Positions 1 through 58,099 of a stretch of DNA of 64,000 bases are shown in pieces. The notes beneath the pieces were generated by a model. It made no database searches, was not told the DNA's origin, and saw nothing but the letters and a program-made list of their open reading frames with translations. The stretch lies in sequence record OR906198.1; one strand, 5' to 3'. This stretch comes from Escherichia phage BP32. The translations under genes and the position numbers were made by a program. How positions within the stretch are numbered: the stretch's first letter is position 1; each line of letters opens with the position of its first letter.

Positions 1-171
1 GCCGAGTGGTTTAGTAATTCAGGCGAACAGCAATTTAATGAAGCGTGGAACATGGGTGATATTAGTGGAATTTATCCTACAACAGAAATTTCTGTTCAGG
101 GATATGGCATTCATGAACCTATTCGTTTAGTTGAATATGATTTATGTACTGGTGAGGAAGTCAAATATGAT
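1..171 (+). CDS. hypothetical protein, 5-prime truncated at window edge
   Basis: frame 1 open from window start to TGA 169-171; stop overlaps next start (ATGA). Confidence 0.4.
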
Positions 172-433
172 TGAAGACATTAAGGGTTATAAGCCACATA
201 CTGAAGAGAAAATCGGTAAAGTGAATGCTATCAAAGACGCTGAAGTTCGTTTAGGACTTATCTTTGATGCTTTATATGATGAATTCTGGGAAGCACTAGA
301 TAATTGTGAAGACTGCGAACTCACAAAGAATTATGCTGAAAGCCTCGATCAGTTAACTATTGCTAAAACGAAACTCAAAGAAGCCAGTATGTGGGCTTGT
401 CGTGCTGTGTTCCAACCAGAGGAAAAATATTAA
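167..433 (+). CDS. vs.4: small early protein, candidate cyclic-oligonucleotide sponge (Acb2 / T4 Vs.4-like), 88 aa
   Basis: GAGGAAG RBS 8 nt upstream of ATG 167; position two ORFs upstream of regB as recalled for T4 vs.4; Tyr8 and Lys23 match my unverified recollection of Acb2 ligand-binding residues. Confidence 0.5.
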
Positions 434-711
434 TGGCTCAATTAAGCGCAGGGTTTGGTTATGAGTATTATACTGCCCCTCGTCGTGTATCTGTCGCTCC
501 TAAGAAAATTCAAAGTCTTGATGACTTCCAAGAAGTAGTCCGTAAAGCTTTCCAGGACTACGCACGTTATCTTAAAGAAGATTCACAGGACTGTCTCGAA
601 GAAGATGAAATTGCTTACTATGAGCAGCGTCTTGAACAGCTTAAAAACCTACATGAGGTTCGTGCAGAAGTTTCAAAGTCTATGAATAAATTGATTAGAT
701 TTAAAGAATAA
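433..711 (+). CDS. hypothetical early protein (vs.3 position), 92 aa
   Basis: ATG overlaps upstream stop (TAATG); GAGGAAAAA RBS; acidic protein. Confidence 0.55.
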
Positions 712-3346: not shown

Positions 3347-3928
3347 ATGGCGAGTTTAATTTTTACTTATGCAGCAATGAATGCTGGAAAATCTGCTTCT
3401 CTTTTGACTGCTGCGCATAATTATAAAGAACGTGGAATGAGTGTATTAGTTCTTAAGCCTGCTATTGATACTCGCGATTCTGTCTGTGAAGTCGTTTCTC
3501 GCATTGGAATTAAGCAGGAAGCGAATATTATTACGGATGATATGGATATTTTTGAGTTTTATAAATGGGCTGAAGCACAAAAAGATATTCATTGCGTATT
3601 TGTAGATGAAGCTCAGTTTTTAAAAACTGAACAGGTGCATCAATTAAGCCGAATTGTCGATACATATAATGTTCCTGTTATGGCTTATGGACTAAGGACT
3701 GATTTCGCTGGAAAATTATTTGAAGGTTCTAAAGAACTTTTGGCGATTGCAGATAAACTTATTGAACTAAAGGCAGTTTGTCATTGTGGTAAAAAAGCGA
3801 TTATGACAGCTCGATTAATGGAAGATGGAACACCAGTTAAAGAAGGTAATCAAATTTGTATTGGTGATGAAATTTATGTTTCTTTGTGTAGAAAACATTG
3901 GAATGAATTAACTAAAAAGCTCGGTTAG
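3347..3928 (+). CDS. tk: thymidine kinase
   Basis: 193 aa; P-loop NAGKSAS; C-terminal Cys cluster; sequence recognised as T4 Tk; AAGGTGA RBS. Confidence 0.97.
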   Translation: MASLIFTYAAMNAGKSASLLTAAHNYKERGMSVLVLKPAIDTRDSVCEVVSRIGIKQEANIITDDMDIFEFYKWAEAQKDIHCVFVDEAQFLKTEQVHQLSRIVDTYNVPVMAYGLRTDFAGKLFEGSKELLAIADKLIELKAVCHCGKKAIMTARLMEDGTPVKEGNQICIGDEIYVSLCRKHWNELTKKLG

Positions 3929-6447: not shown

Positions 6448-6969
6448 ATGTTTATTTCAAGTGGAAGTGGTTTAATTCGTGTTGAATTTAAAAATGACAT
6501 CTTCCTTATTCAAGGAGATGATATTATTAAAATGAGTTATGACGAAATCAAGAAAATTTGTCACGCTCTTGAAAGTCATGGAAAGGAAAATGCTACTATC
6601 GATATAGGTGATTTATGGGTAACGCTTTATGAAGTATCCGAAGGATTTAACATTGAAGATGAAAATAACATTTTAGCTATTGATAAAAGGACCGATTTGT
6701 TTGATGTGTTAAAAGTTTATGAACAGTCAAACGGTGGAAGAAAAGCCGTATTGATTTATCAAAAACCGCATTCATGTGGAACTGCTTCAATCATTTCAAA
6801 TATTGAAGATGAAACTGATACCTATATGTGTGTTTTGAAAGCTGGTGGTGACCGTCATCCGGATTTTATTTCTATTCGTCAAAACAATGGAGAAATTTCA
6901 TTATCAAAATCAGAAGCTGAAGCTATGATTAAGTATTTAACAACTGTTACACCTTCAATGAAAGGATAA
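6448..6969 (+). CDS. hypothetical protein, paralog B
   Basis: 173 aa; C-terminus resembles that of the preceding ORF. Confidence 0.55.
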   Translation: MFISSGSGLIRVEFKNDIFLIQGDDIIKMSYDEIKKICHALESHGKENATIDIGDLWVTLYEVSEGFNIEDENNILAIDKRTDLFDVLKVYEQSNGGRKAVLIYQKPHSCGTASIISNIEDETDTYMCVLKAGGDRHPDFISIRQNNGEISLSKSEAEAMIKYLTTVTPSMKG

Positions 6970-6971
6970 TT

Positions 6972-7418
6972 ATGATTATTAATGAAAACTCTTGGCACGT
7001 TCGTATGCATGATTTCTTTTACTGGCAGCGTCCGAATTCTTTGTGTAAATATTTCTGGAAAATGGCGTGGACGTTCTTAGTTATCGGTGTTATTTGCACA
7101 TCGGGGCTATTAGGTAGTTGGGTGGTAGGACAAGCTATTTTAAGTCAATTTGGTGTTACAGGATTCTGGCTTCTACATGCAGGCGGAACCGTATTTGGTG
7201 TACTGATATTTGCTACGATTGTCATTATTGCAGTAGGTATAGCATATATTGTAGCTAAGATTTCAGGTTTATGGGAAGGAGTCAGGTATGATAGAGCGTG
7301 GAAGCGTCAACAAGACGAAGAAAACGGTATTGAACATCCTAAGAGTGTAATCGTTGAATACCTTAAAGCTAGTAAATCTAAAATCTGCCCTATGATAGAA
7401 TTTAAGGATGTTAAATGA
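6972..7418 (+). CDS. membrane protein (2-3 predicted TM helices)
   Basis: long hydrophobic stretches. Confidence 0.6.
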   Translation: MIINENSWHVRMHDFFYWQRPNSLCKYFWKMAWTFLVIGVICTSGLLGSWVVGQAILSQFGVTGFWLLHAGGTVFGVLIFATIVIIAVGIAYIVAKISGLWEGVRYDRAWKRQQDEENGIEHPKSVIVEYLKASKSKICPMIEFKDVK

Positions 7419-17554: not shown

Positions 17555-19368
17555 CAATTGAAAAAGAAATTGAAGGATTAATTCATAAAACTAATAAAGA
17601 CCTTTTGAACGAGAATGCTAATAAAGATTCTCGTGTTTTTCCAACTCAACGGGACCTTATGGCTGGTATTGTGTCTAAACACATTGCCAAAAATATGGTC
17701 CCGTCTTTTATTATGAAAGCGCATGAAAGCGGAATTATTCATTTCCATGATATTGATTATTCCCCTGCTCTTCCATTTACTAATTGCTGTTTAGTAGATT
17801 TAAAAGGAATGCTTGAGAACGGATTTAAGCTCGGTAATGCACAGATTGAAACTCCTAAATCAATCGGCGTTGCTACTGCAATTATGGCGCAAATTACTGC
17901 ACAGGTTGCTTCCCATCAATATGGTGGAACGACTTTTGCGAATGTAGACAAAGTACTTTCTCCTTATGTTAAACGCACCTATGCAAAACATATTGAAGAT
18001 GCAGAAAAATGGCAAATCGCTGATGCGCTGAATTACGCCCAGTCTAAAACAGAAAAAGACGTATACGATGCATTCCAAGCTTATGAATATGAAGTAAATA
18101 CTCTCTTTAGTTCAAACGGACAAACGCCCTTTGTAACAATTACATTTGGCACGGGAACTGACTGGACTGAACGAATGATTCAGAAAGCAATTCTGAAAAA
18201 TCGTATCAAAGGTCTTGGTCGTGATGGGATAACTCCTATTTTCCCTAAGCTTGTTATGTTCGTTGAAGAGGGTGTTAATCTTTATAAAGACGATCCGAAC
18301 TATGATATTAAGCAGCTTGCTCTAGAGTGTGCAAGTAAAAGAATGTATCCTGACATCATTTCGGCTAAGAACAATAAAGCTATCACAGGTTCATCTATTC
18401 CTGTTTCTCCAATGGGTTGCCGCAGTTTCTTAAGTGTATGGAAAGATTCGACTGGTAATGAAATTCTTGATGGACGTAATAATCTTGGCGTTGTAACACT
18501 GAATCTTCCTCGTATTGCGTTAGATTCTTATATTGGAACACAGTTCAATGAACAGAAATTTGCCGAATTGTTCAATGAACGAATGGATTTATGTTTTGAA
18601 GCTTTGATGTGTAGAATCAGTTCCTTAAAAGGAGTTAAAGCTACTGTTGCTCCTATTCTTTACCAAGAAGGTGCATTCGGGGTTCGTCTTAAACCTGATG
18701 ACGATATAATTGAGTTATTTAAAAACGGTAGAAGTTCAGTGTCCCTAGGATACATTGGTATTCACGAATTGAATATTCTTGTCGGTCGTGATATTGGACA
18801 AGAAATTTTAACTAAAATGAATACTCATCTTAAACAATGGACTGAAAGAACCGGATTTGCTTTTAGTTTATATTCTACTCCTGCTGAAAACCTGTGCTAT
18901 CGCTTCTGTAAACTTGATACCGAAAAATATGGAAGTGTAAAAGATGTTACCGATAAAGGCTGGTACACTAACAGTTTCCACGTTTCAGTAGAAGAAAATA
19001 TTACTCCGTTTGAAAAGATTTCTCGCGAAGCACCGTATCATTTCATTGCGACAGGTGGTCACATTTCTTATGTTGAACTTCCTGATATGAAAAATAACCT
19101 AAAAGGTCTTGAGGCTGTATGGGATTATGCTGCACAACATTTAGATTATTTTGGTGTTAATATGCCAGTAGATAAATGTTTTACATGCGGAAGTACCCAT
19201 GAAATGACTCCTACTGAAAACGGATTTGTTTGTTCTATTTGTGGAGAAACTGATCCTAAAAAGATGAACACAATAAGAAGAACATGTGGCTATTTGGGAA
19301 ATCCGAATGAACGCGGATTTAATCTTGGCAAAAATAAAGAAATCATGCATAGGGTTAAACACCAATGA
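17551..19368 (+). CDS. nrdD: anaerobic ribonucleoside-triphosphate reductase
   Basis: 605 aa contiguous ORF; C-terminal Cys cluster and glycyl-radical-type tail RTCGYLGN. Confidence 0.97.
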   Translation: MTIEKEIEGLIHKTNKDLLNENANKDSRVFPTQRDLMAGIVSKHIAKNMVPSFIMKAHESGIIHFHDIDYSPALPFTNCCLVDLKGMLENGFKLGNAQIETPKSIGVATAIMAQITAQVASHQYGGTTFANVDKVLSPYVKRTYAKHIEDAEKWQIADALNYAQSKTEKDVYDAFQAYEYEVNTLFSSNGQTPFVTITFGTGTDWTERMIQKAILKNRIKGLGRDGITPIFPKLVMFVEEGVNLYKDDPNYDIKQLALECASKRMYPDIISAKNNKAITGSSIPVSPMGCRSFLSVWKDSTGNEILDGRNNLGVVTLNLPRIALDSYIGTQFNEQKFAELFNERMDLCFEALMCRISSLKGVKATVAPILYQEGAFGVRLKPDDDIIELFKNGRSSVSLGYIGIHELNILVGRDIGQEILTKMNTHLKQWTERTGFAFSLYSTPAENLCYRFCKLDTEKYGSVKDVTDKGWYTNSFHVSVEENITPFEKISREAPYHFIATGGHISYVELPDMKNNLKGLEAVWDYAAQHLDYFGVNMPVDKCFTCGSTHEMTPTENGFVCSICGETDPKKMNTIRRTCGYLGNPNERGFNLGKNKEIMHRVKHQ

Positions 19369-19835
19369 ATTATGATAGATTTTATCCTTGCGATTTTGTG
19401 AATGGCCCTGGATGCAGGGTCGTTCTTTTCGTTACAGGTTGTTTGCATAAATGCGAAGGGTGTTATAATAAATCAACGTGGAATGCTAGAAATGGCGTTC
19501 CATTCACTGGTGAAACACTGGAACAATTAATTGAATGTTTGAATAATGATTATATAGAAGGATTAACTATAACTGGAGGAGACCCTCTTTATCCTGATAA
19601 TCGAGATGTTGTTCATTGCATTGTTCAAACAGTAAAAAATCTTTATCCAAATAAAAGCATTTGGTTGTGGACAGGATATAAATTTGAAGATATTAAACAA
19701 CTAGAAATGCTTAAATATGTTGATGTTATTATTGATGGGAAGTATGAGAAAAATCTTCCGACCAAAAAGCTGTGGCGAGGTTCAGATAATCAGCGACTTT
19801 GGTCAAATACCGATGGGGTGTGGAAACATGATTAA
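19365..19835 (+). CDS. nrdG: anaerobic RNR activating protein (radical SAM)
   Basis: 156 aa; Cys-rich N-terminus (CLHKCEGC). Confidence 0.93.
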   Translation: MNYDRFYPCDFVNGPGCRVVLFVTGCLHKCEGCYNKSTWNARNGVPFTGETLEQLIECLNNDYIEGLTITGGDPLYPDNRDVVHCIVQTVKNLYPNKSIWLWTGYKFEDIKQLEMLKYVDVIIDGKYEKNLPTKKLWRGSDNQRLWSNTDGVWKHD

Positions 19836-23826: not shown

Positions 23827-23875
23827 TTGCTTTATAAATTTTTGGTAAAATAAACCAAAACAATGAGGATATTAA

Positions 23876-25078
23876 ATGAAAGTATGCATTTTTATGGCTC
23901 GAGGTCTTGAAGGTTGTGGTGTAACTAAATTTTCTCTTGAGCAACGTGATTGGTTTATTAAAAATGGTCATGAAGTAACTTTGGTTTATGCTAAAGATAA
24001 ATCATTTACTCGTAATTGCGCGCATGATTATAAGTCATTTTCAATTCCAGTTTTATTGGCAAAAGAATACGATAAAACACTTAAGCTGGTAAATGATTGT
24101 GATATTCTAATTATCAATTCAGTTCCTGCTACTTCAGTAGAAGAAGACACTATTAATAACTATAAAAAAATTATTGATAACATTAAACCTTCGGTTCGTG
24201 TTGTAGTTTATCAGCATGACCATTCTTCTCTTTCTTTGCGCCGAAATTTGGGATTAGAAGAAACTGTTCGTCGAGCTGATGTTATTTTTAGCCATTCTGA
24301 TAATGGTGATTTTAATAAAGTTCTGATGAAAGAATGGTATCCGGAAACTGTTTCTCTGTTTGATGATATTGAAGAAGCACCGACCGTATATAACTTTCAG
24401 CCTCCTATGGATATTGCGAAGGTTCGATCAACCTACTGGAAAGATGTTTCTGAAATTAACATGAATATCAACCGTTGGATTGGTCGTACTACTACATGGA
24501 AAGGCTTTTATCAGATGTTTGATTTTCACGAAAAACATCTTAAACCTGCAGGACTAAGTACTATTATGGAAGGTCTGGAACGTTCTCCAGCTTTCATTCC
24601 TATTAAAGAAAAAGGAATTCCATACGAGTATTATCGTCTTCATCAAGTAGACCAAATTAAAATTGCTCCTAATTTGCCGACGCAAATTCTCGACCGTTAT
24701 GTAAATAGCGAAATGCTTGAACGCATGAGTAAATCCGGATTTGGTTATCAGCTGAGTAAGTTGGACAAAAAATATCTACAACGTTCTTTAGAATATACTC
24801 ATCTCGAGCTTGGTGCATGTGGAACAATTCCGGTATTTTGGAAATCTACGGGCGAAAATTTAAAATTCCGTGTTGATAACACTCCGTTAATTTCTCATGA
24901 TAGCGGTATCGTTTGGTTTGATGAAAATGACATGGAATCAACATTTGAACGTATTAAAGAACTGTCATCTGACCGAGCTCTTTATGACCGCGAACGTGAA
25001 AAAGCTTATGAATTTTTGTATCAGCATCAAGATTCAAGCTTCTGCTTTAAAGAACAGTTTGACATTATTACAAAATAA
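23876..25078 (+). CDS. a-gt: DNA alpha-glucosyltransferase
   Basis: 400 aa; sequence recognised as T-even alpha-gt. Confidence 0.95.
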   Translation: MKVCIFMARGLEGCGVTKFSLEQRDWFIKNGHEVTLVYAKDKSFTRNCAHDYKSFSIPVLLAKEYDKTLKLVNDCDILIINSVPATSVEEDTINNYKKIIDNIKPSVRVVVYQHDHSSLSLRRNLGLEETVRRADVIFSHSDNGDFNKVLMKEWYPETVSLFDDIEEAPTVYNFQPPMDIAKVRSTYWKDVSEINMNINRWIGRTTTWKGFYQMFDFHEKHLKPAGLSTIMEGLERSPAFIPIKEKGIPYEYYRLHQVDQIKIAPNLPTQILDRYVNSEMLERMSKSGFGYQLSKLDKKYLQRSLEYTHLELGACGTIPVFWKSTGENLKFRVDNTPLISHDSGIVWFDENDMESTFERIKELSSDRALYDREREKAYEFLYQHQDSSFCFKEQFDIITK

Positions 25079-25254: not shown

Positions 25255-25878
25255 ATGAAAAAATATATAACTTATTTAACAATATATAGTGGAGATAAAC
25301 TTCCTCCTTTTTATATTGGATCTACATCTTTAGATAGGCATTTAGCCGGATATCATGGATCAGTTTTATCTAAAAAGTATAAGAAAATTTATAATGAAGA
25401 ACTTTCAAATAACCCACATTTATTTGATTCATGCATTTTAGATGAATTTGATACGCGCGAAGAAGCTATTAAATGCGAGCTATATTATCAACGTTTGCAT
25501 GATGCGGTTAAAAATCCATTATTCTTTAATATGTCATATGCTGCTCCAAAAGGTTCATTTGGAAGAGATATTAAAGGACAAAATCATCCATTATATGGTT
25601 CTCATAATTGTAAAGGAAACATACATTCACATGACCCATTAACAGGAAAATCTGCCTTTTTACCGTATATTCCAGAAGGTTATGTAAAAGGAAGGTCAAA
25701 TAAATTTAAAGCTTCATCACATAATAAAGGTAAAAAATGGTATAATAACGGAGTTAAGCAAATGTTATGTCATGAACCTCCTGGTCCTGAATGGACAAAG
25801 GGAAAAATTAAAGAACTAGTTTCAAAAGCAGCTAAATTAGGATGGAAAAGACACCATGAAAATACTAAACTTGGGTGA
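25255..25878 (+). CDS. GIY-YIG family homing-endonuclease-like protein (Seg/I-TevI-like)
   Basis: YLTIY...(8)...FYIGSTS, then R..H, then FDSCILDEF...E aligning by eye with the I-TevI catalytic domain; 207 aa. Confidence 0.7.
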   Translation: MKKYITYLTIYSGDKLPPFYIGSTSLDRHLAGYHGSVLSKKYKKIYNEELSNNPHLFDSCILDEFDTREEAIKCELYYQRLHDAVKNPLFFNMSYAAPKGSFGRDIKGQNHPLYGSHNCKGNIHSHDPLTGKSAFLPYIPEGYVKGRSNKFKASSHNKGKKWYNNGVKQMLCHEPPGPEWTKGKIKELVSKAAKLGWKRHHENTKLG

Positions 25879-36081: not shown

Positions 36082-36822
36082 ATGATTAGTGACTCTATGA
36101 CAGTTGAAGAAATCCGTCTTCATTTGGGGCTTGCATTAAAAGAAAAAGATTTCGTAGTTGATAAAACTGGTGTTAAAACTATTGAAATTATTGGCGCATC
36201 ATTTGTAGCAGATGAACCGTTTATTTTTGGCGCTCTTAATGATGAATACATTCAGCGTGAACTTGAATGGTATAAATCTAAGAGCTTGTTTGTTAAAGAT
36301 ATTCCAGGTGAAACACCAAAGATTTGGCAGCAGGTAGCATCTTCTAAAGGCGAAATTAACTCGAATTATGGTTGGGCTATCTGGTCAGAAGATAACTATG
36401 CTCAGTATGATATGTGTTTAGCTGAACTTGGTCAAAATCCTGATTCTCGGCGTGGTATCATGATTTATACTCGTCCATCCATGCAGTTTGACTACAACAA
36501 AGATGGTATGTCAGATTTCATGTGTACGAATACAGTACAGTATCTGATTCGTGATAAGAAAGTCAATGCAGTAGTTAACATGCGCTCAAATGACGTGGTC
36601 TTCGGATTCCGCAATGATTATGCGTGGCAAAAATACGTACTAGATAAATTAGTATCTGATTTGAATGCAGGTGATTCAACTCGTCAGTATAAAGCAGGTT
36701 CCATTATATGGAATGTCGGAAGCCTTCACGTGTATTCTCGTCATTTTTATTTGGTCGACCATTGGTGGAAAACTGGCGAAACTCATATTGCGAAAAAAGA
36801 TTATAATGGTGAGTGGAAATGA
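36082..36822 (+). CDS. 42: dCMP hydroxymethylase
   Basis: 246 aa; thymidylate-synthase-like fold; sequence recognised. Confidence 0.95.
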   Translation: MISDSMTVEEIRLHLGLALKEKDFVVDKTGVKTIEIIGASFVADEPFIFGALNDEYIQRELEWYKSKSLFVKDIPGETPKIWQQVASSKGEINSNYGWAIWSEDNYAQYDMCLAELGQNPDSRRGIMIYTRPSMQFDYNKDGMSDFMCTNTVQYLIRDKKVNAVVNMRSNDVVFGFRNDYAWQKYVLDKLVSDLNAGDSTRQYKAGSIIWNVGSLHVYSRHFYLVDHWWKTGETHIAKKDYNGEWK

Positions 36823-37661
36823 TTCAATTCGTAATTCCAAGCTATCAACGTGTAGGGGCAGTTTCTGCCCTTGATATGTTTCCATCTGATTATGAACCAC
36901 ATATTGTAGTACGTGAACATGAAGAAAAAGCTTATTATGACGCTTACGGGTCTAGAGCTAAAATTATAACTATTCCTGATGATGTCAATGGAATTGCTGG
37001 TACTCGTAAAGCGATTACTGATATGTATGCAGGTCAGCGAATTTGGATGATTGATGATGATACTACTATTCGTATGAGTTCAATGCGAAAGAAAGATGAT
37101 CGTCGCTGCGTAGATAAAATTAATCAGTTAACTCGTGAACAATTCTATGAATTGATTCAATACGTTGAAGATGCCATGGATTGCGGGTATTATCACGGTC
37201 ATGCTCGTTTACCTATTTTTAAAATTACTTCATCTTGGGGTAATTATCGTGAAAATTCATATGGATTCACGAATACATGGTATGACCTTGGAAAACTTAC
37301 AACAGAACAAATTGGGTATGGAAAAATTGATTTATGCGAAGATATGTATGCATTTCTCAATTTAATTAATCAAGGTTATCCGCATTTGGCCTTGTTCAAA
37401 TATCTGGTTGTATCCGGAAAAGCACAGGCTCCCGGTGGATGCAGCTCAATTCGTAGTAATTCTAAGCATAATAGAGCTCTTGAGCAAATCAATAAAGAGT
37501 TTCCAGAGCAAGCTCGTTGGAAAACTTCTAATATTGAAAAACGAAAATCATTAGGTGAAGAAGACGAGCCATTAAAGGTTCTTCGCATGTGTGTTTCGCG
37601 CAAAGAAAAGTCAGAAGCGTTTCATAAGTTTAATGCTATTCATCCAATAGCAGTTGATTAA
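36819..37661 (+). CDS. GT-A-like glycosyltransferase at the beta-gt locus (not T4 beta-gt; possibly a T2/T6-type beta-glucosyl-HMC-alpha-glucosyltransferase)
   Basis: 280 aa with DDD motif (WMIDDDTT); sits between 42 and uvsX; sequence unlike T4 beta-gt as I recall it. Confidence 0.55.
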   Translation: MIQFVIPSYQRVGAVSALDMFPSDYEPHIVVREHEEKAYYDAYGSRAKIITIPDDVNGIAGTRKAITDMYAGQRIWMIDDDTTIRMSSMRKKDDRRCVDKINQLTREQFYELIQYVEDAMDCGYYHGHARLPIFKITSSWGNYRENSYGFTNTWYDLGKLTTEQIGYGKIDLCEDMYAFLNLINQGYPHLALFKYLVVSGKAQAPGGCSSIRSNSKHNRALEQINKEFPEQARWKTSNIEKRKSLGEEDEPLKVLRMCVSRKEKSEAFHKFNAIHPIAVD

Positions 37662-43361: not shown

Positions 43362-44701
<1,340 letters not shown>

Positions 44702-44759: not shown

Positions 44760-45278
44760 ATGGCTTACTTTAATGAATGTTCACAACTGATTGAAGGCGC
44801 TGATAAAGCTCAAAACGAATACTGGGATATTCTCGGTGATGAAAAAGACCCGCTGCAGGTTATGCTTGATATGCAGAAATCTTTACAGGTTCGTTTAGCT
44901 AAAGATAAACCTGAATATAACCGTCATCCTGATGATTTGGCTACTGCTGGTGAAGTTGTTGATTGGCTACGTAATCAGAAAGATTATATTGACGATGAAT
45001 TCCGTGAACTTCTGACATCTCTTGGCGGTATGAGCAATGGCGAAAAAGATGCATCTGCTGTATGGAAGCCTTGGAAAGCTCAACACGGTGAACGCCGCGA
45101 AACTCTAATTACTGATTTGTCTCCACAAGACCAGTTGGAAATTAAATTCGAAATGATTGATATTCTTCATTTCGTTCTGAACATGTTCCAAGGTCTTGGT
45201 CTTACGGCTGAAGAAATCTTTAAACTTTATTATCTGAAAAATGCTGAAAACTTCGCTCGTCAAGACCGAGGTTATTAA
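44760..45278 (+). CDS. 56: dCTP pyrophosphatase (dCTPase/dUTPase)
   Basis: sequence recognised; AAGGAAA RBS before ATG 44760. Confidence 0.93.
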   Translation: MAYFNECSQLIEGADKAQNEYWDILGDEKDPLQVMLDMQKSLQVRLAKDKPEYNRHPDDLATAGEVVDWLRNQKDYIDDEFRELLTSLGGMSNGEKDASAVWKPWKAQHGERRETLITDLSPQDQLEIKFEMIDILHFVLNMFQGLGLTAEEIFKLYYLKNAENFARQDRGY

Positions 45279-45322
45279 TAGCTCGTTTATTTAAACGACG
45301 ACTTAAAAGCCGTGAGAATTAT

Positions 45323-45330
45323 TATAAATA
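45323..45330 (+). promoter_or_regulatory. late promoter TATAAATA
   Basis: exact consensus about 30 nt upstream of soc. Confidence 0.6.
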
Positions 45331-56229: not shown

Positions 56230-56281
56230 AGCTTTATGATTACTGGAGTATAATATTCCCGAAACCAAACGAGGATAAGTG

Positions 56282-58099
56282 ATGATTAAGAATGAAATTA
56301 AAATTCTGAGCGATATTGAACATATCAAAAAGCGTAGCGGCATGTACATTGGCTCTTCCGCTAATGAAATGCATGAGCGCTTTCTGTTTGGTAAATGGGA
56401 AAGTGTTCAGTATGTACCTGGTCTTGTTAAGCTTATTGATGAAATTATTGATAACTCAGTAGATGAAGGTATTCGTACTAAGTTTAAATTCGCAAATAAA
56501 ATTAATGTTACTATCAAAAACAATCAAGTAACAGTTGAAGATAACGGTCGTGGTATTCCACAAGCGATGGTTAAAACACCTACTGGTGAAGAAATTCCTG
56601 GTCCAGTTGCTGCCTGGACTATTCCAAAAGCAGGTGGTAACTTTGGTGATGATAAAGAACGCGTCACCGGTGGTATGAATGGTGTTGGTTCTAGTTTAAC
56701 TAACATTTTTTCTGTGATGTTTGTCGGTGAAACCGGCGATGGTCAAAATAATATTGTAGTTCGTTGTTCAAATGGCATGGAAAATAAATCGTGGGAAACT
56801 ATTCCTGGAAAATGGAAAGGAACTCGCGTTACTTTCATTCCCGATTTTATGTCATTTGAAACTAATGAGCTATCTCAGGTTTATCTTGACATTACACTAG
56901 ATCGTCTCCAGACACTTGCGGTAGTTTATCCTGATATTCAATTTACCTTTAACGGTAAAAAGGTTCAGGGTAATTTTAAGAAATATGCACGCCAATATGA
57001 TGAACACGCTATCGTTCAAGAACAAGAAAATTGTTCTATTGCGGTTGGTCGTTCACCTGATGGTTTTCGTCAATTAACATACGTCAATAACATTCATACT
57101 AAGAATGGTGGCCATCACATTGACTGCGTTATGGATGATATTTGTGAAGACCTTATTCCACAAATCAAACGTAAATTCAAAATTGATGTAACTAAAGCAC
57201 GTGTCAAAGAATGTTTGACTATCGTTATGTTTGTTCGTGATATGAAAAACATGCGATTTGATTCTCAAACTAAAGAGCGTCTGACTTCTCCATTTGGTGA
57301 AATCCGTAGTCATATTCAGCTTGATGCTAAAAAGATTTCACGTGCTATTTTGAATAATGAAGCAATTTTAATGCCAATCATTGAAGCTGCCTTGGCTCGT
57401 AAATTGGCGGCAGAAAAAGCAGCAGAAACTAAAGCAGCTAAAAAGGCCTCTAAAGCTAAGGTTCATAAACACATTAAAGCGAATCTTTGCGGTAAAGATG
57501 CTGACACTACTCTTTTCTTGACTGAGGGTGATTCTGCTATCGGATATCTTATTGATGTTCGTGATAAAGAACTTCATGGTGGTTATCCATTACGCGGTAA
57601 AGTTCTTAACAGCTGGGGTATGTCATATGCTGATATGCTTAAAAACAAAGAACTGTTTGATATTTGCGCAATCACTGGATTAGTTCTTGGCGAAAAAGCT
57701 GAAAACTTGAATTATCATAATATTGCTATTATGACCGATGCTGATCATGATGGTCTAGGAAGCATTTATCCTTCTCTGCTCGGATTTTTTAGTAATTGGC
57801 CAGAACTGTTTGAACAAGGAAGAATTCGCTTTGTCAAAACTCCTGTAATCATCGCTCAGGTCGGTAAAAAACAAGAATGGTTTTATACAGTCGCTGAATA
57901 TGAGAGTGCCAAAGATGCTCTACCTAAACATAGCATCCGTTATATTAAGGGGCTTGGCTCTTTGGAAAAATCTGAATATCGCGAGATGATTCAAAACCCA
58001 GTATATGATGTTGTTAAACTTCCTGAGAATTGGAAAGAGCTTTTTGAAATGCTCATGGGAGATAATGCTGACCTTCGTAAAGAATGGATGAGCCAGTAG
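56282..58099 (+). CDS. 39: DNA topoisomerase II large (GyrB-like) subunit, uninterrupted
   Basis: 605 aa; ATPase and Toprim domains (TDADHDG); C-terminal region matches what T4 encodes separately as gp60. Confidence 0.95.
   Translation: MIKNEIKILSDIEHIKKRSGMYIGSSANEMHERFLFGKWESVQYVPGLVKLIDEIIDNSVDEGIRTKFKFANKINVTIKNNQVTVEDNGRGIPQAMVKTPTGEEIPGPVAAWTIPKAGGNFGDDKERVTGGMNGVGSSLTNIFSVMFVGETGDGQNNIVVRCSNGMENKSWETIPGKWKGTRVTFIPDFMSFETNELSQVYLDITLDRLQTLAVVYPDIQFTFNGKKVQGNFKKYARQYDEHAIVQEQENCSIAVGRSPDGFRQLTYVNNIHTKNGGHHIDCVMDDICEDLIPQIKRKFKIDVTKARVKECLTIVMFVRDMKNMRFDSQTKERLTSPFGEIRSHIQLDAKKISRAILNNEAILMPIIEAALARKLAAEKAAETKAAKKASKAKVHKHIKANLCGKDADTTLFLTEGDSAIGYLIDVRDKELHGGYPLRGKVLNSWGMSYADMLKNKELFDICAITGLVLGEKAENLNYHNIAIMTDADHDGLGSIYPSLLGFFSNWPELFEQGRIRFVKTPVIIAQVGKKQEWFYTVAEYESAKDALPKHSIRYIKGLGSLEKSEYREMIQNPVYDVVKLPENWKELFEMLMGDNADLRKEWMSQ

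Follow-up and report, generated by a model that had tools for sequence, protein, structure and literature searches.

The open reading frame at 167–433 (+ strand) of a 64,000-nucleotide stretch of Escherichia phage BP32 (OR906198.1), hereafter the window, is vs.4 of a T4-like phage (Tequatrovirus), the positional orthologue located between vs.5 and vs.3/regB, and it very probably encodes an Acb2 orthologue predicted to be a hexameric sponge that takes up the cyclic dinucleotides of CBASS without enzymatic action. The identity of the gene, its synteny and the conservation of every published functional residue were demonstrated by sequence, and this allele would be expected to hexamerise, to bind the ligand and to counter CBASS, given its 97.7% identity to the assayed T4 Vs.4. 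The gene, its structure, its mechanism and its key residues have already been published for T4 (2023–2025) and vs.4 is ordinary for T-even phages; the allele in the window is new, though conservative. The features of the locus were placed as follows.

1–174 (+): 3′ part of vs.5, which runs off the start of the window, with its TGA at 172–174.
154–158 (+): Shine-Dalgarno-like GAGGA, read from the sequence, 8 nt before the vs.4 ATG and within the 3′ end of vs.5.
167–433 (+): vs.4/acb2 coding sequence, 88 codons plus TAA, from the ORF listing, its translation and the PDB, Pfam and PHROG matches.
188–199 (+): codons of Tyr8 (188–190) and His11 (197–199), N-terminal cGAMP contacts (roles from PMC10097602), kept in 38/38 homologues.
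233–235 (+): codon of Lys23, the salt-bridge residue to a cGAMP phosphate, equivalent to K26 of PaMx33 Acb2.
320–325 (+): codons 52–53, CTC ACA, giving Leu-Thr where T4 Vs.4 has Phe-Ala, the sole differing residues.
386–412 (+): codons of Ser74 (386–388), Ala77, Arg79 (401–403) and Phe82 (410–412), inside an invariant motif, predicted to form the C-terminal half of the cGAMP pocket and of the hexamer interface.
433–711 (+): vs.3, 92 aa, PHROG 2037.
771–1232: RegB, Pfam REGB_T4 (E 8.1e-69).

The coding sequence starts with the ATG at 167 and ends with the TAA at 431–433, giving on the + strand the 88-aa product that the initial annotation had described. The GAGGA at 154–158 is the same in T4, and in the old T4 record X04567 a ribosome_binding_site is annotated beneath the matching stretch. 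The vs.5 stop overlaps the vs.4 ATG by 8 nt (ATGATTGA), which makes translational coupling of the two genes probable, and the vs.4 TAA shares one base with the vs.3 ATG (TAATG), an overlap that places vs.3 and vs.4 in one transcription unit. The scan of positions 1–1400 for promoters and terminators revealed no promoter upstream of vs.4 within the window, and the vs.4 promoter presumably lies beyond the window start; the only σ70-like promoter-like site found in this interval was at 715–743, before regB, and the counts of such sites were not above those in shuffled sequences. Relative to T4, nine codons of vs.4 differ synonymously (10 nt differences) and two non-synonymously, which fits purifying selection on the gene, and the substitutions separating it from four other close relatives were also mainly synonymous. 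On the grounds of homology, this synonymous bias and the intact start and stop contexts, both a chance ORF and a pseudogene at 167–433 were rejected. A 'terminator' on the – strand (398–381) and a 45-aa – strand ORF (187–324) were taken as chance occurrences within a conserved gene of the + strand. Searched with Rfam at its gathering thresholds, the whole window gave no match, and hence no hidden RNA element is present at the vs.4 locus.

The best phmmer match among PDB chains was T4 Vs.4 in complex with cGAMP (7UQ2, E 4.9e-56), aligned end to end with 86 of the 88 residues identical (97.7%) and with F52L and A53T as the only differences. The next matches were the chains of PaMx33 Acb2 (p26; 8IXZ, 8H2J), at an E-value of about 0.02 (0.017) over residues 4–85, in which the window protein's Y8 and K23 are paired with Y11 and K26 of a chain of 93 residues. 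Moreover, residues 7–83 matched Pfam PF24729 (Acb2_Tad1_hairpin) over profile positions 1–58 of 58, scoring 71.4 bits where the gathering cut-off is 27, and the PHROGs assignment was phrog_717 (E 3.2e-32), the family from which Jenson et al. 2023 gathered Vs.4 homologues (PMC10097602). The initial annotation had named T4 vs.4 as the anti-CBASS gene acb2 and Tyr8 and Lys23 as its ligand-binding residues, and both statements agree with the literature, in which T4 Vs.4 is Acb2 (Jenson et al. 2023, PMC10097602; Cao et al. 2023, PMC10312549) and Y8 and K23 contact cGAMP (PMC10097602). The two residues are present in the window protein (codons 188–190 and 233–235), and in the comparison with T4 Vs.4/Acb2 that had been proposed as a check the alignment was highly significant, with the Tyr and the Lys aligned exactly. 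The word 'candidate' had thus been too cautious for what is, at 86/88 identity, an orthologue and no distant look-alike.

The record of phage Ec_O157kw, which is 97% identical, annotates the gene at this position as 'anti-CBASS protein 2', and the encoded protein is identical to that of the window at 83 of 88 residues; in most deposited relatives the gene is labelled 'hypothetical protein'. The exact 88-aa protein had no match in the assembly collection look-up, and tblastn against 50,697 phage records found no allele at 100% identity (best 97.7%), an absence from those collections that simply reflects two conservative substitutions. No model of NCBIfam or PADLOC matched the protein, the PADLOC blank being expected for an anti-defence gene.

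The genetic context points to the same gene. In the T4 RefSeq record the transcription order is vs.5, vs.4, vs.3, regB, vs.1, vs, tk.4, tk.3, tk.2, tk.1 and tk, and the gene order of the window is that of T4, including an SLT-domain vs.1, a macro-domain tk.4 and tk at 3347–3928. The reported position two ORFs upstream of regB was borne out, with only vs.3 (433–711) lying between vs.4 and regB (771–1232), and so was its counterpart in T4, where vs.4 occupies the same slot two genes 5′ of regB. Positions 11–780 of the window are 97% identical to T4 without indels, and 4 kb of the window are 97–98% identical to many Tequatrovirus genomes. Among 46 related loci, regB was found 3′ of vs.4 in 38 and a vs.5 homologue 5′ of it in 34, but vs.3 followed vs.4 in just 21, which indicates that the vs.4–regB linkage is conserved and that vs.3 is dispensable.

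The product of tk.4 (2116–2595, +), a gene placed four genes 3′ of vs.4 in the same early block, is a macro-domain protein (Pfam Macro, 33 bits); macro domains remove ADP-ribose, and a role of tk.4 against ADP-ribosylating defences is therefore conceivable. The vs.5 gene of the window reads '...AEWFSNSGEQQFNEAWNMGD...EEVKYD' in a single open frame, like its close relatives, and in three of the related loci (L002, L004 and L005) the vs.5 open frame has 76 codons, with '...NAFAEWFSNSG...', whereas the T4 RefSeq Vs.5 (58 aa; NC_000866 63381–63557) begins likewise with MAKIIIEGSEDVLNAFA and switches to another reading frame after that. Relative to the window phage, T4's reference sequence thus appears frameshifted in vs.5; in an alignment read by eye, six of the eight vs.5 differences between the window and T4 were at third positions in the window's frame.

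Other parts of the window also depart from T4. At the site of T4 b-gt/segA, 36813–37661 (+) encodes a 282-aa glycosyltransferase of the TAGT family (Pfam PF20691, 38.7 bits) assigned to PHROG 842, 'beta-glucosyl-HMC-alpha-glucosyltransferase' (E 2e-89), which we take to resemble T2/T6-type, not T4-type, hydroxymethylcytosine glucosylation. The interval from gene 61 to dam contains an ORF of 186 aa that T4 lacks there (43362–43922, +; PHROG 8706). It resembles type II restriction endonucleases weakly, at scores that stay below threshold (Pfam DpnII, E 2e-3, and BanI, E 5e-3; PADLOC REase_II, E 5e-5), and this nuclease-like ORF directly adjoins the gene of the Dam (GATC) methyltransferase. A 207-aa homing-endonuclease-like ORF (25255–25878, +; GIY-YIG, E 9e-4, below the cut-off; PHROG 10820, E 2e-93) sits in the interval from a-gt to gene 47, a place at which T4 carries none. 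The comparison of the sites of T4 insertions (about 18086–18089, 19365–19385, 23860–23885, 45241–45323, 6448–7418 and 56279–58099) showed that the window is without the nrdD intron of T4 with I-TevII, mobC, mobB, segF and mobD, the place of mobD being taken by a y05I-like protein (6448–6969) and a 148-aa membrane-protein-like ORF (6972–7418); Rfam found no group I intron in the window. The mobA/60.1 insertion is absent as well, and consequently the topoisomerase gene 39 is uninterrupted, a single ORF of 606 aa lacking the gene-60 bypass region.

The roles of individual Vs.4 residues were established in T4 by structure, ITC, mutagenesis and phage knockout (PMC10097602). In that structure, Y8 and F82 stack on the bases of cGAMP, and Y8, H11, K23 and R79 form hydrogen bonds or salt bridges to it, while S74N disturbs ligand contacts, T12I abolishes a helix cap, and the hexamer interface is composed of L29, F33, A66, A73 and A77 (PMC10097602). 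In PaMx33 Acb2, alanine mutants of Y11 and K26 lost cGAMP binding (PMC10312549). The window protein has Y8, H11, T12, K23, L29, F33, L60, A66, A73, S74, A77, R79 and F82, and so retains, as far as its sequence tells, the six dinucleotide-pocket residues (Y8, H11, K23, S74, R79 and F82) at their T4 positions and all five hexamer-interface residues (L29, F33, A66, A73 and A77).

The conservation of these residues was assessed in the 46 related IMG/VR loci, which were translated and from which 38 distinct full-length T4-like sequences were aligned. Y8, H11, K23, A66, S74, A77, R79 and F82 were invariant (38/38), T12, L29 and A73 were kept in at least 36 of the 38, residue 33 was Phe in 29 and Leu in the remainder, and L60 was variable. 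Residues 1–33 and 66–88 are near-constant in T4-like Vs.4, and the segment of about 34–65 (nt 266–361) is hypervariable with indels; within it, Leu occupies position 52 in 14 of the 38 homologues and Phe in 16, and Thr53 was seen solely in the window sequence. This hypervariable middle third covers the equivalents of the PaMx33 trinucleotide-pocket residues, residue 61 being D, A, T, H, Q, S, R or G and residue 68 T, E, Q or D among T4-like homologues, a variability by which T4-like phages may differ in the ligand of a second pocket, if any. In three of the loci (L043, L045 and L046), vs.4 (about 1501–1780) is frameshifted or truncated, with products of 26 aa, of 74 aa, or with a C-terminus altered after KEASMW; these lesions could be assembly errors or natural acb2 loss alleles like those selected by Panoptes.

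The window protein is predicted to fold as a helical hairpin. Its single-sequence AF2 model (pLDDT 80.8) comprises helices at 13–45 and 50–82 joined by a loop at 46–49, and the best PDB matches of the model were 7UQ2 (E 3e-9, TM 0.57, rmsd 5.2 Å) and then Acb2 8H2J/8H2X. The model is fit for secondary structure; as it superposes only moderately on 7UQ2, it was kept out of fine-grained claims. Residues 52 and 53 fall in the first turn of helix 2, beside the hairpin loop, which would set them at the tip of the hairpin, away from the dinucleotide pocket, whose residues lie at the other end near both termini, a placement that is likewise approximate.

The ligand range of the T4 protein has been characterized in several studies. 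T4 Vs.4 binds 3′,3′-cGAMP with a Kd of about 30 nM by ITC, its hexamer holds three cGAMP molecules, each between two protomers, and the titre of T4 without vs.4 is down about 50-fold on a CBASS host with inactive Cap2 (PMC10097602). Another study obtained a Kd of about 84 nM for 3′,3′-cGAMP and found that T4-Acb2 shares its dinucleotide ligands with PaMx33 Acb2 and binds neither cA3 nor cAAG, that D61R gains no cA3 binding, and that this lack of cA3 binding is ascribed to an unkinked helix and to clashes of Y37, A57, L60, D61 and T64 (PMC10312549). These five residues and T68 are all kept in the window protein, which is therefore expected to bind dinucleotides only, like T4. It was also demonstrated that T4 Acb2 binds 2′,3′-c-di-AMP with a Kd of about 62 nM, that sequestration of this molecule frees the OptE effector, and that Acb2 is necessary and sufficient to trigger Panoptes, an effect abolished by Y8A and by F82C, the latter being a Panoptes-escape allele of T4 acb2 with poor 2′,3′-c-di-AMP binding (PMC12657218).

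By its near-identity to the assayed T4 protein, the window product would be expected to work as follows. The vs.4 gene would probably be transcribed early together with vs.5 and vs.3, and its 88-aa hairpin product would assemble into a hexamer with three pockets, each between two protomers and each taking one cyclic dinucleotide, whose bases would stack on Tyr8 and Phe82 and whose phosphates and riboses would be held by Tyr8, His11, Lys23, Ser74 and Arg79. In this way 3′,3′-cGAMP and related dinucleotides would be bound at tens-of-nanomolar affinity without degradation, and CBASS effectors, for instance the phospholipase CapV, would be deprived of the signal of the host CD-NTase, so that the infected cell is proposed to survive until the phage finishes. 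In hosts carrying Panoptes (OptSE), the sequestration of the decoy 2′,3′-c-di-AMP would also trigger that system.

Compared with known systems, the window protein stands closest to T4 Vs.4, that is, T4 Acb2 (NP_049728; 7UQ2), likewise of 88 aa and in the slot between vs.5 and vs.3/regB; the cGAMP-contact, hexamer-interface and cA3-occluding residues are all identical, and the two substitutions, F52L and A53T, belong to the variable segment at the hairpin tip. The Acb2 proteins of the Pseudomonas phages PaMx33 and JBD67 (8H2J, 8H2X, 8IXZ) belong to the same family and would share its fold and hexameric sponge mechanism, but with only about 24% identity, a figure from PMC10312549. PaMx33 Acb2 has a second type of pocket that binds cyclic trinucleotides via R67 and T74 (PMC10312549). 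The Pseudomonas proteins also take two cyclic trinucleotides, by means of R67/T74 and a kinked helix; of the Arg and Thr that define such a dual-pocket protein at these positions, the Arg is replaced in the window protein by Asp61, and Thr68 stands at T74, as in T4. With this Asp and the T4-type occluding residues, no trinucleotide binding would be expected.

Tad1 (Thoeris anti-defence 1) has the helical-hairpin module in common with the window protein (Pfam Acb2_Tad1_hairpin) and is larger, with an additional domain forming the gcADPR pocket, for which the hairpin model, covering residues 7–83 of 88, leaves no room. Tad1 is also a signal-sequestering sponge, reported to bind CBASS nucleotides too (PMC10680739). 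Acb1 (T4 gene 57B) and Acb4 serve the same purpose as Vs.4, the removal of CBASS cyclic-nucleotide signals, and are described in PMC11722364 as a phosphodiesterase that degrades the signal and as an unrelated sponge family, respectively; the window protein matched neither of them in the PDB, Pfam and PHROG searches.

Other readings of the locus were weighed against that of an intact sponge with T4-like function. If the gene is vs.4 but its F52L/A53T allele has an altered ligand spectrum, it could for example have gained binding of cyclic trinucleotides or of 3′cADPR, or have a weaker affinity for the Panoptes decoy 2′,3′-c-di-AMP. L52 and T53 indeed belong to the middle segment (about 34–65) that is hypervariable and carries indels between two near-invariant ends, the residues of the PaMx33 trinucleotide pocket (R67, A70, I71 and T74, equivalent to T4 61–68) fall in or beside that segment, and Thr53 is unique to the window among the 38 homologues. 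However, the two replacements, F to L and A to T, are conservative, relatives carry Leu52 as often as Phe52, the dinucleotide-pocket residues are all identical to those of T4, and the AF2 model would put 52/53 at the hairpin tip, at the far end from that pocket; as for trinucleotides, the five residues blocking the cA3 pocket are unchanged and even D61R gave T4-Acb2 no cA3 binding. An altered spectrum is consequently regarded as highly improbable. The broader idea that the middle third of T4-like Acb2 is an arms-race surface rather than a product of neutral drift, and that the window allele is functionally unlike that of T4, is very unlikely as well; if true, it could mean that the middle third adjusts a second pocket on the three-fold axis to further immune signals or, alternatively, that it helps to evade host systems sensing the sponge or its decoy binding, such as Panoptes-like guards.

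A decaying accessory gene, with an intact ORF that is unexpressed or without functional relevance, would accord with the frameshifted or truncated vs.4 of 3 of the 46 related IMG/VR loci, with the laboratory selection of loss-of-function acb2 alleles by Panoptes and with the lack of a promoter-like site directly 5′ of vs.4 in the window. Such decay is barely credible, though, for a gene that keeps a full-length frame, its Shine-Dalgarno sequence and T4-like coupled overlaps with both neighbours, which differs from four close relatives mainly by synonymous substitutions and whose functional motifs are intact. Neither an altered spectrum nor a silent or decaying gene has positive support, and the vs.4/acb2 orthologue with the properties of its T4 counterpart is retained as the preferred reading.

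Given an intact anti-CBASS sponge, the phage is predicted to be able to infect bacteria whose CBASS signals through cGAMP at moderate output, and to be restricted by those that carry Panoptes. These two predictions may serve host-range prediction or phage-therapy annotation and add no new biology; since relatives mostly label the gene 'hypothetical protein', the practical value of the finding lies in a better annotation of vs.4 in these phages.
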